A DNA stretch of 42,531 bases from a virus, in IMG/VR virus record IMGVR_UViG_3300009503_000008, positions 1 through 42,531 of that record. One strand, written 5' to 3'. The notes beneath the pieces were generated by a model. That model worked only from the letters and a program-made list of their open reading frames with translations, was not told the origin of the DNA and made no database searches. Positions 1,121 to 10,070 of the stretch are shown here, one piece after another (within the stretch, counting starts at the first letter, position 1; every line of letters starts with the position of its first letter). A program made the position numbers and the translations under genes.

Positions 1121-1579
1121 TCACCTTCTTTCCATCACCGCCTCCGGCCATCTCGCCGGCGGCAGCTTGCCTCGCTCGTACCGTCCGCATTCCACCACCT
1201 TGTAGGCCGGCCCGGTGCCCGATAGCCGTGTCGTGACCACGTGACAGCCGGCCAGCGCGATACCCTCCTCCACCGTATTGGCTCCCAGGTATGGGCAGTC
1301 GGTCGCGATGGCGTGGCGGCAGGTGTCGCACAGCGTGCCCAGCTCGTAGAACCGGGACCGGTCCACCTCGGTGACGACCGGGGTCTCCGGGTCCGTGGAG
1401 GGGTCCGCCTTTCCCCGGCGGGAAAGGAGTCGTAACTCCGCCTGCGGCACCTTGCGGCCATGCTTGGTTCCGTCAAACCGAACCACAGCCCAGGCACCAT
1501 CCTTCGCCGCAACCTGCACAGTGCCGTATTTCCCGGTGGATATGTGGAACACCCGTTCATTTCGCTGGCAGGTTATCAT
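1121..1579 (-). CDS. Hypothetical Cys-rich protein (152 aa)
   Basis: Complete ORF in line with the early operon, with protein-like composition. Overlapping ORFs in other frames are R/G/P-rich junk. Confidence 0.6.
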   Translation of the reverse strand: MITCQRNERVFHISTGKYGTVQVAAKDGAWAVVRFDGTKHGRKVPQAELRLLSRRGKADPSTDPETPVVTEVDRSRFYELGTLCDTCRHAIATDCPYLGANTVEEGIALAGCHVVTTRLSGTGPAYKVVECGRYERGKLPPARWPEAVMERR

Positions 1580-2045
1580 CTCGCCTTACTCCCCTTGTCC
1601 GACGGTATGATTTTTTCAACGCTGCCATACACGGTGTATCGCAGCCACTATCTGCTACACGGATTACCACCTCCACACGCGGCGGTGTGCCATACCGTTT
1701 GCGTATCACCGCATCCGTCACGCGGGAATCATTGGTCCAAAATAGCCCTTCCAGGGCATCGGTCAAGGACTTGGCAAGATTGTCCCAATCCGGCTTGCGG
1801 TCTGGTAGCATATCGGCCTTACGTCGGCTTTGCGGTCGCGGCAGGTAGAATACGGCCTCAATCGCCAGCGGACAGTCCAGCGGTTCCGCAGGCAAATATG
1901 GCATCGCCTGGGCGGCGATGTTTTCCTCCCACCGGACAGTGCGCGGTGGCGTGAAGCTGCTGATTTGGCCATTCGGACGCCTGACCGTCCGGGCCCTTGC
2001 CTTTGGCACGGGCAGACCGTATACCGTGAACCTGATCTCGTCCAT
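1557..2045 (-). CDS. rusA: RusA-family Holliday junction resolvase
   Basis: MDEIRFTVYGLPVPKARAR...FTPPRTVRWE...PDWDNLAKSLTDALEGLFWTNDSRV carries the RusA hallmarks (G.P.pK.R, kPD.DNl.K...DAl...DD). Confidence 0.85.
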   Translation of the reverse strand: MDEIRFTVYGLPVPKARARTVRRPNGQISSFTPPRTVRWEENIAAQAMPYLPAEPLDCPLAIEAVFYLPRPQSRRKADMLPDRKPDWDNLAKSLTDALEGLFWTNDSRVTDAVIRKRYGTPPRVEVVIRVADSGCDTPCMAALKKSYRRTRGVRRDDNLPAK

Positions 2046-2060
2046 CTGCTGTTTCTCTCC

Positions 2061-2501
2061 TCACCGATTGCCCGGCTTCCCCGCCGGCGGCTCCTCCAAC
2101 GTCCAGTCCGGGGCCACTGGGTACTTCTCGGGCCTGTCTCTTCCCGCGGCGCAACGGCAGCGGTAGACGTACTGGTACACCTCGTGCCGGAACTCGTCCC
2201 GCCCGGAGCGGCCCGCGATCACGATGCCATTGATACACCGGCCACAGCCCCTATTGTGCCGTACCGATGGTGATATGCCGCCTGGGTTCATCTCGGCCAG
2301 AACTTTGGCCCGGATATGGCTGATCAGGGGCCAGGAGCGGGAGTCTTGCTCCCGCATCACGGCACGCACGGCGTCCATGGCCGCGTCCGCCGGCAGATCC
2401 CCTATCTGGTCCCACCACGCGGCCCGTGTCGCGTCGGTCGGACGCAGCCCATAGATGGCCGCGATGTAGCTCACAATGCCATCGCTCTCATCGTGCGTCA
2501 T
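2061..2501 (-). CDS. Hypothetical protein, possibly a G39P-like helicase loader, with a C-terminal Zn knuckle
   Basis: IVSYIAAIYGLRPTDATRAAWWDQIGDLPADAAMDAVRAV resembles the N-domain pattern of SPP1 G39P-type loaders (from memory). CGRC...CRC follows. It sits directly downstream of the replisome organizer. Confidence 0.45.
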   Translation of the reverse strand: MTHDESDGIVSYIAAIYGLRPTDATRAAWWDQIGDLPADAAMDAVRAVMREQDSRSWPLISHIRAKVLAEMNPGGISPSVRHNRGCGRCINGIVIAGRSGRDEFRHEVYQYVYRCRCAAGRDRPEKYPVAPDWTLEEPPAGKPGNR

Positions 2502-3523
2502 GGATCAGCACCTCGTTTTCGGTTTTTGGCCCTCTCAAGCAGCTCCGTGAAGTCCGGAGCAGCAACCGGGGTTGGATCTCTAGCCCGTGCCTCGGCCTCG
2601 GCCTGCGGCCTGGTCCTGATCCCCGCGGCGTGCCAGCGCCGGAGGATGCCCTCGATGTAGTCCACCCGGCGCTTGCCCCGGTCGGCGGCGAGCTCGCAGG
2701 CATACACGATGGCTCCCATGTCCATGCCGCGGCCAAGCCATGCGGCCACCCTTTCCACCTGGTGGGCCGGCGGACAGAGGATGCCGGCCATGGATTCAAG
2801 TGCGTGATGGATGTTCATGGCGGGGTCTGGGGCAGGCGGCTCAACGGGGTCGGTGAGATGGTCGGGCGGCATGGCCGGGTCGGTGAGCACGGCCGGCATG
2901 GCGGTCGACTCTGCCAGTTGGTCCGTGGCCGGTTGGTTGGCGGGTTGGCGGGTTGGCGGGTTGGCGGGTTGACCGATTAACCGGTCGCCGCCGCCGGACG
3001 CCGCCGGTTGGTCCTCGCGTGCGTGCGCGCGTCCGGTTCCGGTATCCGTTTCGTTTCGTTTCGTTTCGTTTCGTTTCGTAGCTATGTCACGCGACGCGCT
3101 CGCAGTGCGCTCGTGATCATCACGTGATGCGCTCGCGGTGTCTCCCTTCCGCCGCGCTCTCCACTCCCGATTCCGCGCGGCGTTTTTCTCCCGCCGCTCG
3201 ATGAGCACCCCGGCGTACTCGTCCCAGTCGTGGACATGCAGGCCGCCGTCCTCGTCGTGCTCCAGGAAGCCCGCTGAACCGCCGGGGCCGCAGTCCACAA
3301 GGGCCTTGACAAACACCTCTGGGTCGCCGTCCCATGCCCCGGCATCGGCTATATCCTCGACGGAGTAACGGCTGAGGTCTCCGTCCTGGGCGAAGTCCAG
3401 GCACCAACACCAGAGGTGACAGAGATGGCCAACGGCGGCTACCTCCGACACGTCTAGGAGCCGCGCCAACCGTTTGGTCTTGGGGTGATGTCTCAGGGTT
3501 TGGTCAATCCTGATCCAAGCCAC
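2498..3523 (-). CDS. Replisome organizer / replication initiator with a C-terminal DnaD-like domain
   Basis: The N-terminal phage replisome-organizer-like region is MAWIRIDQTLRHHPKTKRLARLL...HLWCWCLDFA. The C-terminus, AIVYACELAADRGKRRVDYIEGILRRWHAAGIRT, fits the DnaD/DnaB_2 domain motif (Yi.gIL..W...gi.t). A low-complexity linker carries DNA tandem repeats. Confidence 0.8.
   Translation of the reverse strand: MAWIRIDQTLRHHPKTKRLARLLDVSEVAAVGHLCHLWCWCLDFAQDGDLSRYSVEDIADAGAWDGDPEVFVKALVDCGPGGSAGFLEHDEDGGLHVHDWDEYAGVLIERREKNAARNREWRARRKGDTASASRDDHERTASASRDIATKRNETKRNETDTGTGRAHAREDQPAASGGGDRLIGQPANPPTRQPANQPATDQLAESTAMPAVLTDPAMPPDHLTDPVEPPAPDPAMNIHHALESMAGILCPPAHQVERVAAWLGRGMDMGAIVYACELAADRGKRRVDYIEGILRRWHAAGIRTRPQAEAEARARDPTPVAAPDFTELLERAKNRKRGADP
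2937..2968. repeat. 8-bp tandem repeat ttggcggg x4 inside the organizer linker
   Basis: Read directly: ttggcggg at 2937, 2945, 2953 and 2961, plus flanking partial copies. It encodes QPANPPTRQPANQPA. Confidence 0.9.
3047..3076. repeat. 5-bp tandem repeat cgttt x6 inside the organizer linker
   Basis: Read directly: cgttt x6 (3047-3076). It encodes KRNETKRNET on the minus strand. Confidence 0.9.
3087..3140. repeat. Two 21-bp imperfect direct repeats flanking an 11-bp palindrome
   Basis: tcacgcgacgcgctcgcagtg (3087-3107) and tcacgtgatgcgctcgcggtg (3120-3140) match at 18/21. The palindrome gtgatcatcac lies at 3113-3123. Confidence 0.75.
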
Positions 3524-4027: not shown

Positions 4028-4387
4028 TTACCTTGTCCGTTCATCCGTCTTGGCGACGGCATCCACGATGTCGTCGCCGCTCCAGGGCGTCTTTCTTCTG
4101 GCCCAGCAAACCCCCAGCATCAACCGGCCGAAGTAAACCTCCCTAACCCGCAACTTCGCGAGTTCCCGCCGGTTGAACCAAACCGGGGGCCTGTCGCCCG
4201 GATGGTCCTTGTACCAAAAATCCCCTTTCCGGGTGGCCCAGGCCAGCCCGATGGCGGCCTTGGGCGCTATTTTGGTGAACCACCATATCGAGTCTGGCTT
4301 GGTTGTCATGAGAAACCTCTTACCACAAAAGATAAAGATTGCCTTGCTGACGTTCGGTTCCTCAGAAGTGGCGGTCATGGTGTCCAT
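4028..4387 (-). CDS. Hypothetical protein (119 aa)
   Basis: Complete ORF, co-oriented with its neighbours. Its start overlaps the MTase stop, and its composition is protein-like. Confidence 0.6.
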   Translation of the reverse strand: MDTMTATSEEPNVSKAIFIFCGKRFLMTTKPDSIWWFTKIAPKAAIGLAWATRKGDFWYKDHPGDRPPVWFNRRELAKLRVREVYFGRLMLGVCWARRKTPWSGDDIVDAVAKTDERTR

Positions 4388-6423
4388 GGGATCATCCCCT
4401 CCGCTGCCAGAATCGCCATGCCGATCTCCCTCACCACCTGCGGGACCACGGCGTTACCGAGGGCTTGCAATTTCTGCCGCCGGAAGGGTGCCTTGCCAGC
4501 CGCAAGCCTCGGCGGCTCCCAGTGATATTGGTCGCACCCTGCGGGTGCGGGCCATCGATGTTCAGCCAGCCGGGAGGATAGCCCATCAGACAACACACCC
4601 AGTCCGGGTTGAGGGTGCCTTTTACCACGTTTGGCAATTGATCCGGCATATTCCTGTTTTTGTTCGGACCCCGGTAATCTCTTGCCGCAGGCGTGGGCCA
4701 CATCTTCGCATGGGCCACCGCCCCCGGCAGTGCATAATTCCCCGCCGAATCCCGCTGGTTCGGCCCTCCGTGATCCCCGTCCGATGTCCTGGGCGTGGGC
4801 CACATCTTCGCCATCTGCTCCAGTGTCGGGCCGAAACCTTGACCGCTGTATCCATCTATCTTTTTCGCTCTCGGCGTGGGCCAAAATCCAGACCCGATCC
4901 CTTCTGTGCGGGGTGCCGACGGCACAAGCCGGTATAACAAACGCCGCTGTTTTGTAGCCTTCACTTTCCAGGTCAGATAGCACATTGTCGAGTGCCATGC
5001 TGATGATTCCAACAACGTTTTCACCAAGCACCCAATGCGGCCTGACTTCCTTGACAACTCTAAGCATTTCAGGCCAGAGGTAACGGTCATCCTCTTTGCC
5101 TCTTCGCTTCCCGGCGCAGGAGAATGGCTGGCAGTTATGGACAATTGCTCCATCCGCAATATAACTCTCATCCCCCTCAACGGCGATATTGTAAACAGTA
5201 CCTATGCCGCATGGTTCTACTTTTCGTACCAATTTCCAACCATATAGCCCTTCTACATATGCGGAACGATTCCGTGATGGGATACATACAGCGTAAAAAT
5301 CTCGTTGATTTACGACTCTTCCTTCAATTATCTTCTTTCTTGGCACTTTACATTTTCGCACGGATGCTACAACACCGTAAGCTCGTTGTGCCAATAATGC
5401 TGCCCCATATGCCAGAGACTTACTAACGGTAGTTGCCCGTACTTCATTGGTCTTCTTGTCTTTATATCCATCACCCGAAAGATACCCATCGAGAAAAGCG
5501 CGAGCTCTACTTTCATCCAAAGCTAACACGAACCCAGGAATCGTTTTACCTGTTGCCTTATGTCCAAATTGCTTCAAAAAATCACAGAAGACAGAGGAAG
5601 TAATTATAAACTTGACTACTGTCCTTTCCTTGCTTTTAGTACAATTGAATCCTGCTTCCTTAATGCGTTGCCCCAATAAATCGGCTTCGTTTTCCGCACA
5701 ACAAATAACCACCCGCTTGGCTCTACTGTTAATACGGCTCCCCCTTTCCCCTTGCGGTATTTTGCTCTTACGTTTGTAGTCTACAACCCAACCATCTGCT
5801 AAAAACCTACCAACCAACCACCAAAACTCAAGATTTCTATCGTCTTTATAAATTGGTGGCAAAGTCTGAGCAATAAACATTCCTTTTATTTCCTTAGCTT
5901 GTTGCCAATTAGGCTTGCTCCAAACACGCACACACTTTCTCTTACTGCCTTCGCGTGGCATAGATATCCGATAAGTCCTCGCAAGAAAAGGATGTTCAGG
6001 CGTTGTAATCACATCAACTCCTTGTGCTTTCACGTGAATCAATGGAGCATTATCCCGTTTCATTACTGCAGTTACAGGTCTCCAGTTGCCACGGTGTGTT
6101 AGGACTATGTCACCAACCTTCAGTGTTTCAATCAGCTTGTATCCTTCCCAAGTTAAAACCATAGTTCCTTGAGCAAAACATGGAAACCCTCCGCAAACAA
6201 CGTCAATTGCTCCACTTTCAATACCTGCTTCCTCCAGACTCTGCTTTGTCAACCCGAGAATATCGCCGAATATCGGCACTTCCGGCCAGTGGTACTGTAG
6301 CACTTGCTGACAGAACGGTTCTAGCTCGCAGAAGGCCACGGTTCCGAAGGCCCCCGTGGACTCAAGGCCCAGGGAAAAGCCGCCAATGCCGGAGAATAAG
6401 TCAAGGACCTTTAACTTTGGCAT
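4375..6423 (-). CDS. DNA (cytosine-5)-methyltransferase precursor containing an intein
   Basis: Motif I is LDLFSGIGGFSLGL. Motif IV is split as GGFP|C...HN|CQPFSCAGKRRG. Motif VI is GENV, motif VIII is GTPHRRDRVWILA and motif X is LGNAVVPQV. Total length is 682 aa, of which 349 aa are intein. Confidence 0.9.
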   Translation of the reverse strand: MPKLKVLDLFSGIGGFSLGLESTGAFGTVAFCELEPFCQQVLQYHWPEVPIFGDILGLTKQSLEEAGIESGAIDVVCGGFPCFAQGTMVLTWEGYKLIETLKVGDIVLTHRGNWRPVTAVMKRDNAPLIHVKAQGVDVITTPEHPFLARTYRISMPREGSKRKCVRVWSKPNWQQAKEIKGMFIAQTLPPIYKDDRNLEFWWLVGRFLADGWVVDYKRKSKIPQGERGSRINSRAKRVVICCAENEADLLGQRIKEAGFNCTKSKERTVVKFIITSSVFCDFLKQFGHKATGKTIPGFVLALDESRARAFLDGYLSGDGYKDKKTNEVRATTVSKSLAYGAALLAQRAYGVVASVRKCKVPRKKIIEGRVVNQRDFYAVCIPSRNRSAYVEGLYGWKLVRKVEPCGIGTVYNIAVEGDESYIADGAIVHNCQPFSCAGKRRGKEDDRYLWPEMLRVVKEVRPHWVLGENVVGIISMALDNVLSDLESEGYKTAAFVIPACAVGTPHRRDRVWILAHAESEKDRWIQRSRFRPDTGADGEDVAHAQDIGRGSRRAEPAGFGGELCTAGGGGPCEDVAHACGKRLPGSEQKQEYAGSIAKRGKRHPQPGLGVLSDGLSSRLAEHRWPAPAGCDQYHWEPPRLAAGKAPFRRQKLQALGNAVVPQVVREIGMAILAAEGMIPWTP
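5134..6180 (-). mobile_element. Class-1 intein with a LAGLIDADG homing endonuclease domain, inserted in motif IV of the MTase
   Basis: Block A is CFAQGTMVLTWEGYKLIETLKVGDIVL and block B is TTPEHPF. The LAGLIDADG motifs are WWLVGRFLADGWV and AFLDGYLSGDGY. Block F is VYNIAVEGDESYIA and block G is GAIVHN, followed by +1 Cys. The region is visibly lower in GC than its flanks. Confidence 0.9.
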
Positions 6424-8372: not shown

Positions 8373-9314
8373 CTATATTTCCACACTCTCCATATTGTCC
8401 ATGGTACTATCGCTTGCGGTTATCTCGTTATCTTCTACCGGCGGCCAGACTTCCTCACCAGTTGCCAAGAGGTTAAGAAAGGTGATCAGATCCGATGCGT
8501 GCTCTTTGGTCAGCTCCTTCGAGGACGTAACGCCGTATCGGTAGCTAATGATGCCGTGCATGGTTTCTTTTGATAAGTCAAGCTCCCGACTCATGGCATA
8601 TATCTTCTTGAGCTGTACATCTGTCGCTTTTGTTTCACCGGTGTTATCCTTGGCGTTGTCCTTGTTGCCGGGAGTGGCCTCAACGACCGTTGCCGGGTGA
8701 ACGGGCCCTGACACCTGCACCGGGGCAGTGGGCAGACTCGACTCGTCGGCAGCCATTTCCTCGACCGAATAGAGGCTGCCAAATTCCTCCGGAAATGCCT
8801 CTCGTAACGCACCCACCAGAGCCACCTTCCTGATCTGCGATCCGGGCATCTTTGCCCACATGGCTTGCGGGCGTCCGTCCTTGAGCGGCATGTACTCGTC
8901 CAGGCTAACGGTCACTCGAAACGGATGGGACCGATCCTTCCGATATACTTCTGCCCATCCCCCGACCAGGCGCTCCGTTTTGAGGACTAGGGACCCTTCC
9001 CGCTCCTCGACTCCGGCATCGGAAACCACAAGGACACCCGCCCGAAAGCCGTCGAACTCCGGATGACGCGCAGCCCTCTTCGTGAACGTCTCTTTGCCAA
9101 CCACTATGGTGGCAGGGCTATTCCCGTATTTGATCAGGTAGACCTCCCGCAAGAACGGATTCAGCCCCTGATAACGGCACAAGTTGAGAAACATCATGAC
9201 CTCTTGATCCGTTACCGCGCCGTTGCCATTGACTAAGTAACGTTTCACGATTTCGGGACTCAACGCTACCTGTCCCGATGCTGTGTCAAACTTTACGAGT
9301 GCCTGATCCGCCAT
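8373..9314 (-). CDS. recT: RecT-family single-strand annealing recombinase
   Basis: LNLCRYQGLNPFLREVYLIKYGNSPATIVVGKETFTKRAARHPEFDG is the RecT core pattern (ldP...e.ylip......iGy.G...la). It lies next to a nuclease. Confidence 0.85.
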   Translation of the reverse strand: MADQALVKFDTASGQVALSPEIVKRYLVNGNGAVTDQEVMMFLNLCRYQGLNPFLREVYLIKYGNSPATIVVGKETFTKRAARHPEFDGFRAGVLVVSDAGVEEREGSLVLKTERLVGGWAEVYRKDRSHPFRVTVSLDEYMPLKDGRPQAMWAKMPGSQIRKVALVGALREAFPEEFGSLYSVEEMAADESSLPTAPVQVSGPVHPATVVEATPGNKDNAKDNTGETKATDVQLKKIYAMSRELDLSKETMHGIISYRYGVTSSKELTKEHASDLITFLNLLATGEEVWPPVEDNEITASDSTMDNMESVEI

Positions 9315-9326
9315 TTTATATACCTC

Positions 9327-10070
9327 CTAAAAATCTTGATGACATATCTTCCAATAACCGCAATGTTTTTCCGAACATAGGAAGTTATCCGGGTTAGGAT
9401 AGAACACTCCAGCGTTTATTGCGGCCACCACCCGCTCGGCGATGGCGGTAAACCGCTGTATGTCTCGTTCCGTCCGTTTCGCCTCCAGGGTGACGACCTT
9501 TGGGTTCCTTGCTTGCACCAAATAGTCAAGCCTCACTCCCGCCTCCGGTATGCCCATAAGGTACCGGTGCGCAAGGCTGTAAGCCGACAACTGGAGATTC
9601 TTGGCCGCGGAGTCCTCGCTCGGGGTTCTCGATGCCGTCTTGGTGTCGTGAATGTATCCTCTGTTGTCCAGCAGGTCGATAAACCCGAGCAAGGTGGTTC
9701 CCGCGAGGGGCACTTCCACCTTTTCCTCCACCAGGAATGGCTGTGTTTTGGGCGCAACCTCCTGGTGATAGAGTGCCGCCAGGGTTACCGCTTCATCCTT
9801 AACCTGGCCGGGCTTTTCGTCCGGCTCAAACTCAGTTAAATCTTGCTCCGCCTCAAAAGCGGCCGCGGTAACTTCTTTTACTTCATGCAGGGGCAGGTCC
9901 TGGTACGATTCAATCTTTTGCCTATAGTTGTGTTCCTGCCCCTTGTGCACCGCTCGTCCCTTCGTTAGCGCGGACTTCGGCGGTAGTACCATGCCGCATA
10001 CGTAGCGGTAATAGTAGGATGCTGGGCAGCGCAGGTACATATTGATCTGTGTCGGGGATATGTGATCCAT
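9327..10070 (-). CDS. PD-(D/E)XK nuclease, Cas4/RecB-like, with a Cys cluster
   Basis: YLRCP near the N-terminus, GFIDLLDNRGYIHDTK (D...D.K catalytic core) and a C-terminal CSEKHCGYWKIC cluster. This is the typical exonuclease partner of RecT. Confidence 0.8.
   Translation of the reverse strand: MDHISPTQINMYLRCPASYYYRYVCGMVLPPKSALTKGRAVHKGQEHNYRQKIESYQDLPLHEVKEVTAAAFEAEQDLTEFEPDEKPGQVKDEAVTLAALYHQEVAPKTQPFLVEEKVEVPLAGTTLLGFIDLLDNRGYIHDTKTASRTPSEDSAAKNLQLSAYSLAHRYLMGIPEAGVRLDYLVQARNPKVVTLEAKRTERDIQRFTAIAERVVAAINAGVFYPNPDNFLCSEKHCGYWKICHQDF

Follow-up and report, generated by a model that had tools for sequence, protein, structure and literature searches.

A viral locus with the layout of a two-chain C5 cytosine DNA methyltransferase encoded in two overlapping reading frames and interrupted by an intein

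Introduction

C5 cytosine DNA methyltransferases are typically monomeric, and M.AquI and M.EcoHK31I are exceptions among these otherwise single-chain enzymes (PMC3404938). In M.EcoHK31I from Escherichia coli HK31 (YGGCCR; Lee, Kam & Shaw 1995), the coding sequence for the beta chain lies wholly inside the alpha gene in another reading frame (PMC2836561). The alpha chain holds motifs I-VIII and X, the beta chain holds motif IX, and both chains are needed (PMC2836561; PMC3404938), while beta binds alpha less well when parts of its N-terminus are deleted (PMC2836561). M.AquI from Agmenellum quadruplicatum (CYCGRG; Karreman & de Waard 1990) also consists of two chains and is split in the variable region (PMC3404938). 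Here, we analyzed a methyltransferase locus in IMG/VR virus record IMGVR_UViG_3300009503_000008, whose positions 1 to 42,531 make up the 42,531-nucleotide stretch that we call the window and to which all coordinates refer. The long methyltransferase frame is termed frame A and its product alpha; frame B lies at +1 relative to frame A and its product is termed beta. Our findings indicate that the locus very probably encodes a C5 cytosine DNA methyltransferase made of two chains, alpha and beta, as in M.EcoHK31I, with a single DNA stretch coding in both frames.

An earlier reading of the window, made from its letters without database searches (the sequence-only reading), had proposed that the methyltransferase variable region at 4556-4886 looks better encoded in an alternative frame. 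Two compensating frameshifts, recoding, an overprinted nested open reading frame (ORF), or an evolutionary frame-swap of the target-recognition domain had been offered as explanations.

Results

The two frames of the locus are both readable over a long stretch of DNA (Table 1). Frame A matched the Pfam family DNA_methylase at 2.7e-38, along with Hint and LAGLIDADG domains, and motifs I (FSGIGG), IV (PCQ), VI (ENV), VIII (RRDR), and X (GNAVVP) are all on its polypeptide. Motif IV is whole only after intein splicing, which leaves an alpha chain of 333 amino acids. The ORF of frame B lies wholly within that of frame A at an offset of +1, and its likely start, ATG 5153, gives a protein of 240 amino acids. 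Between RRDRVWILA and LGNAVVPQV, frame A consists of low-complexity text (ESEKDRWIQRSRFRPDTGADGEDVAHAQ...), just as the sequence-only reading had described it, whereas frame B over 4556-4886 reads FWPTP...MWPTP...MWPTP...LNPDWVCCLMGYPPGW, that is, three WPTP modules followed by LMGYPPGW. The letters that frame A reads as DVAHA are read as MWPTP in frame B. The higher third-position GC that had been noted by eye for frame B was borne out over this interval (0.69 versus 0.54 for frame A), with the other genes of the window at 0.65-0.74. Over the alpha N-extein, frame B is closed by 3 stops. The homology of frame B runs from ~5153 down to ~4494 and thus also across motifs IV-VIII of frame A, so the interval first proposed was rightly placed but too small.

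Frame B belongs to a protein family of its own. We found 1553 homologs with E-values down to 1e-55 and lengths of 176-411 amino acids, all without Pfam domains, and frame B matched phrog_1008, which is annotated "DNA methyltransferase," at 5e-37. For the C-terminal half of frame A, the match was to another family, phrog_363. Searches of frame B against Pfam and NCBIfam returned no family, and the hits in the ESM Atlas were all to viral clusters without a name that belong to beta's own family. The 1553 homologs and the phrog_1008 match place frame B beyond chance. The beta chain of the window departs from its family at two positions where conservation reaches 90% or more in our alignment (A2), with Cys for the family Glu (WVE to WVC) and Leu for the family Thr (GWT to GWL), and both substitutions are shared with one relative (P0009).

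For the comparison among relatives, we collected 169 loci from viral contigs and one-per-species genomes with frame-B patterns alone, which together with Paenibacillus phage Tadhana brought the set to 170 loci, drawn from Bacillota, Bacteroidota, Proteobacteria, Actinomycetes, Saccharibacteria, and other groups. Open frames were counted in 157 loci (cultured genomes, metagenome-assembled genomes, and isolated phages), and start signals were scored in 144 distinct loci. The frame-B match lay at +1 on the frame-A match to motifs IV-VIII in 170/170 loci, and a search among them for a stand-alone beta gene, with no methyltransferase frame overlapping it, found none. In 116 of the 170, the pattern was exactly that of the window: frame A held the N-terminus, motifs IV-VIII, and motif X, while the two halves of beta were in frame B. 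The nested two-frame layout was kept in 138-149 of the 157 loci in which frames were counted.

In the variable region, frame A was open in 149/157 loci and frame B in 156/157, whereas the third frame was open in none (mean, 7.4 stops). Over motifs IV-VIII, frame A had no stops and frame B had 1 in 13,291 codons (0.01 per 100 codons), compared to 5.4 per 100 in the third frame; over motifs I-III of the same genes, frame B had 4.9 stops per 100 codons and the third frame had 7.0. These counts bear on the idea of a sequencing or assembly artefact, in which two compensating indels would have displaced the stretch from ~4886 to ~4556. A homopolymer run does lie near 4886, but the two-frame layout recurs in 149/157 independent loci from unrelated assemblies and frame B is far longer than the interval that such indels would displace, and we regard this explanation as effectively ruled out.

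Conservation was also compared frame by frame, as the sequence-only reading had suggested, and selection was found on frame B as well as on frame A. Mean scores in the variable region were 58.6 bits for frame B, 29.1 for frame A, and 21.3 for the third frame, and frame B outscored frame A in 10,983 of 11,026 pairs, in line with the claim that this region is better encoded in the alternative frame. Selection in the variable region is on frame B, and frame A is merely held open there. The situation differs in the motif IV-VIII overlap. Pairs below 55% identity were compared at four-fold degenerate codons of frame A with a shared amino acid, and the identity of the third position was 0.580 in the overlap versus 0.264 (saturated) in the non-overlapped N-terminus. 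Selection in this overlap is on both frames.

The beta frame also has its own initiation signals in the relatives. Across the family, the median distance of the beta ORF start upstream of the motif IV Cys is 21 codons, the usual opening is M..EQLTLFP, and the start codon is ATG in 131/144 distinct loci. Shine-Dalgarno pairing at these starts had a median of -6.85 kcal/mol, compared to -3.35 kcal/mol in in-gene controls (p = 3e-15). The overprinted nested ORF is the explanation supported here, because both frames are open and selected across ~150 independent loci and because M.EcoHK31I provides an experimental precedent.

Five relatives (L022, L046, L103, L115, and L147) carry a different arrangement. 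Frame A ends just past motif VIII in these loci, with 5-18 stops in the variable region, and beta reads ...LMGFPIGWTD...RWPAG..EQYEWEPPRV...LKACGNAVVP, such that the WPTP repeats, LMGFPxGW, and motif X are in one frame; a database protein (P0074) has the same fusion of beta to motif X. The window type is out of register with these five by one base, and the change falls between GW.. and RWPA..., at the second junction (~4556), while the first junction (~4886) is the end of alpha motif VIII and the onset of beta's first WPTP. We conclude from the five fused loci that beta is part of the methyltransferase, that motif X is possible on either chain, and that LMGFPxGW stands at the position of motif IX in ordinary enzymes. 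The proposal of an evolutionary frame-swap was half right: its junctions were correctly placed, the five relatives keep motifs IX and X in one frame, and the difference arose in evolution and not through sequencing or assembly.

We considered that a single chain could instead be made by programmed frameshifting, with a +1 shift at ~4886 and a -1 shift after LMGYPPGW at ~4556. Such a hybrid would restore the canonical motif order, a T-run is present at ~4886, and a single shift would be enough in the five relatives, since these have motifs IX and X joined in one frame to begin with. However, frame B is open and under purifying selection for ~110 codons upstream of the supposed shift site, which this model does not need, and the relatives show an ATG and a Shine-Dalgarno sequence that belong to beta itself. 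If ribosomes left frame A, there would be no reason for it to remain open across the entire variable region, as it does in 149/157 loci. In addition, FWPTP overlaps (V)WIL, and a shift there would therefore remove the motif VIII strand, while the T-run is unconserved and many relatives have LWPTP. Frameshifting is very unlikely on these grounds, and the recoding raised by the sequence-only reading is both unneeded and unsupported.

Structure predictions were made for both chains. The closest intein-free relative is from Lihuaxuella (L091), and the model of its alpha had a predicted local distance difference test (pLDDT) score of 90-98 over motifs I-VIII and of 94 in the motif X helix, compared to 37-58 for a linker of ~120 residues without secondary structure, which is predicted disorder. 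A profile of alpha from the relatives aligned to M.HhaI residues 11-176 in a PDB profile search (E = 9e-35) and to motif X weakly, and the part of M.HhaI with target recognition and motif IX had no counterpart in this alignment. The stretch of frame A from motif VIII to motif X, which is unconserved and, in the relative, predicted to be disordered, does not hold the target-recognition domain and motif IX in the same chain. For the beta chain of the window, the AlphaFold2 model gave residues 10-80 as two helices and a hairpin with pLDDT 76-89.

We also considered that beta could be a real nested protein with a function outside the methyltransferase, such as a regulator or an unrelated DNA-binding protein, given that it lacks a Pfam or PDB match and that its N-terminal domain is predicted to resemble an independent small fold. 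This explanation is unlikely. Beta is confined to a methyltransferase subfamily in 170/170 loci, it is fused in frame to motif X in five of them, and alpha is without a conserved DNA-recognition candidate between motifs VIII and X. A non-methyltransferase role would also run counter to the M.EcoHK31I precedent.

The intein, with a GC content of ~42% versus ~60% around it, interrupts the beta frame as well as the alpha frame. A search with protein patterns found no relatives of it in viral contigs, whereas a DNA pattern for the VHN/CQPF junction found this junction in 44 viral contigs that include giant-virus bins, and also in methyltransferase subfamilies without a nested beta gene. The old beta start reads LKVEQLTLFAEGF, followed by intein DNA and a stop after 22 codons, and this remnant matches EQLTLF, the N-terminal consensus of the beta family. 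From the last intein codons onward, the beta ORF is intact again, and at this point ADGAIVHN in frame A corresponds to ..MEQLSIT in frame B with ATG 5153. An 11-nucleotide string, TGGAGCAATTG, is common to the old start region and the last intein codons (5140-5156, minus strand). The new start reads ATG-GAG-CAA-TTG (MEQL), compared to GTG-GAG-CAA-TTG (VEQL) for the old one, which lies 30 nucleotides upstream of the insertion site.

In other intein-bearing two-frame methyltransferases, the start of the beta ORF often falls among the final 15 or fewer codons of the intein. Two inteins also end in ADGAIVHN but are encoded there by different codons, without such an ATG. By our own estimate, the chance of the codon choices at the intein end is about 1%. 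These features are suggestive of an intein that adapted to the overlapping gene by carrying a replacement start for beta, a scenario that we hold as tentative and doubtful.

The positions of the features are collected in Table 1.

Table 1. Features of the two-frame methyltransferase locus and the basis for each assignment (slashes mark splice junctions)
Feature	Position	Strand	Basis
Alpha gene (frame A), C5 cytosine DNA methyltransferase precursor, 682 amino acids	4375..6423	-	ORF; Pfam; M.HhaI alignment
Alpha content: motifs I-VIII, linker, and motif X; interrupted by the intein	4375..6423	-	Pfam DNA_methylase, Hint, and LAGLIDADG
Alpha N-extein: motifs I-III and GGFP of motif IV	6181..6423	-	Translation; intein boundaries
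Intein (Hint and LAGLIDADG) directly before the motif IV catalytic Cys, GGFP/C...VHN/CQPFS	5134..6180	-	Domain matches; GC; junction in many viral contigs
Beta gene (frame B), nested ORF, 249 codons from the first possible start	4431..5180	-	ORF; homologs; phrog_1008
Beta N-terminal domain, PGSEEAKRMTVTSG...YLTWK...RLVPSAPRT, on the DNA of alpha motifs IV-VIII	4887..5153	-	Open frame; synonymous-site constraint; AlphaFold2
Interval of the sequence-only reading: three WPTP modules (putative target recognition) and LNPDWVCCLMGYPPGW (motif IX-like) in frame B; poorly conserved linker in frame A	4556..4886	-	Bit scores; third-position GC
Alpha C-terminal tail, RWPAPAGCDQYHWEPPR...LQALGNAVVPQV (motif X)	4375..4550	-	Kept in frame A in at least 116/170 loci
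Stranded remnant of the original beta start: GGAGG 6231-6235, TTG 6221 / GTG 6215	6153..6235	-	Matches the family N-terminal consensus

The neighborhood of the locus (1557-3523 and 8373-10070, minus strand) is a phage early replication/recombination module, which encodes a RusA resolvase, a replication initiator/DnaD-like protein, a RecT-like annealing protein, and an exonuclease. A scan of ten nearby ORFs against PHROGs showed no restriction enzyme partner.

Several other observations concern the distribution of the family. In the plasmid dcm genes of Bacillus thuringiensis, B. tropicus, and Lacticaseibacillus (H29-H31 and H34), only the N-terminal ~110 frame-B residues match, at ~50% identity; either the C-terminal part of beta has diverged in these genes or only the frame-B image of motifs IV-VIII is present. 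Five copies of the two-frame locus are on one Roseovarius chromosome from a metagenome-assembled genome (L129-L131, L134, and L135) and three are in Lihuaxuella thermophila (L091-L093), with match coordinates that are apparently identical, which suggests several related prophages or repeated elements. In one relative (L003:2533-2892), ~33 codons are inserted between motifs VI and VIII, and both frames are open and can be read through this insertion.

Discussion

The nested layout is known but rare in the literature, and by this analysis it is common in phages. Both frames of the family are conserved, open, and separately selected, and in the relatives beta has its own initiation signals. We infer from the comparison with M.EcoHK31I that alpha and beta assemble into an active enzyme. 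Alpha would first be made as an intein-containing precursor and would then comprise a catalytic Rossmann domain (motifs I-VIII), an unstructured linker of ~110 residues, and the motif X helix. Beta would be made from its own start inside the alpha gene, with its first ~90 residues overprinting alpha motifs IV-VIII, and this N-terminal part probably docks on alpha, by analogy with M.EcoHK31I beta. The remainder of beta, with the WPTP repeats and LMGYPPGW, would be the target-recognition and motif IX part that is wanting in alpha. In the window, beta would have to begin at the new ATG 5153 in the last intein codons.

The likeness to M.EcoHK31I is one of layout, drawn from its published description: a second ORF is nested in the first and alpha has motifs I-VIII and X. 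A blastn search against E. coli genomes gave no DNA match. The M.EcoHK31I chains, at 309 and 176 amino acids, are similar in size to the spliced alpha of 333 and the beta of ~240 amino acids in the window. Unlike M.EcoHK31I, the gene in the window is phage-borne (prophage), has no restriction partner seen nearby, and has an intein that cuts beta too. The logic of M.AquI is found in the five relatives with the fused beta, where motifs I-VIII are on alpha and the variable part is on beta together with motifs IX and X. The window differs from M.AquI in that motif X is in the alpha frame, such that motifs IX and X are not together on the small chain. The overprinted N-terminal extension of ~90 residues on beta is not described for M.AquI in the text consulted (PMC3404938). 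In contrast to the monomeric M.HhaI (PDB 1mht, 10mh), alpha is without a counterpart of M.HhaI residues ~177-298, and this missing part appears to be supplied by the second frame.

An annotated likeness is in Paenibacillus phage Tadhana (MG727700), where genes 54 (an ORF of 357 amino acids) and 55 (234 amino acids) form a nested pair with the same +1 offset. Both are annotated "DNA-cytosine methyltransferase" and have 41-42% identity to the window in both frames. Tadhana is unlike the window in that it has no intein, a low GC content, and a normal beta start (MESSQEIEQLTLFP...). The nested pair is not discussed in the Paenibacillus phage genomics paper.

Several results weigh against a two-chain enzyme in the window. 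Beyond the N-terminal domain, confidence in the AlphaFold2 model of beta is low, and a Foldseek search of this model against the PDB gave no structural match. The low confidence of the WPTP region is as expected, however, because this part would fold against its partner and DNA. The putative motif IX in frame B was not matched by Pfam, by a PDB profile search with the beta alignment, or by a search with a short peptide; the PDB search with the 33-residue motif IX-like peptide returned chance rubredoxin hits alone. The likeness of LMGYPPGW to motif IX that the sequence-only reading had pointed out therefore stands as a resemblance by eye, backed by its position in five relatives, and did not gain profile confirmation in the Pfam and PDB searches. 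The literature also places the target-recognition domain of M.EcoHK31I in alpha, whereas the sole conserved candidate in the family of the window, the WPTP repeats, is in beta. Finally, the candidate starts of beta in the window have weak Shine-Dalgarno sequences (-3 to -5 kcal/mol), and the ancestral sequence, which is strong, has been left behind upstream of the intein. The expression of beta in the window is uncertain even though its ORF is intact, because the original start and ribosome-binding site have been cut off and the new signals are weak. Judging from these signals, beta, and hence the enzyme, may be poorly expressed in the window.

The proposed two-chain methyltransferase encoded in two frames bears on several questions beyond the window. 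PMC3404938 names only two natural two-chain C5 methyltransferases, whereas here we describe more than 1500 beta-type proteins from many bacterial phyla, in a phage and prophage family that uses the nested layout and at times an M.AquI-like layout. Gene callers give one frame for such loci, with the result that beta is usually missing or called hypothetical and the alpha linker is taken for the target-recognition domain. This matters for predicting the specificity of phage methylases, given that the conserved DNA-recognition candidate is in the frame that usually goes unannotated. The family is also an example of overlapping genes in which purifying selection acts on two frames at the same time over ~90 codons, and these span the catalytic motifs that are most conserved in the enzyme. 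The clash between the intein and beta is a small natural experiment, in which a mobile element has inserted into doubly coding DNA.

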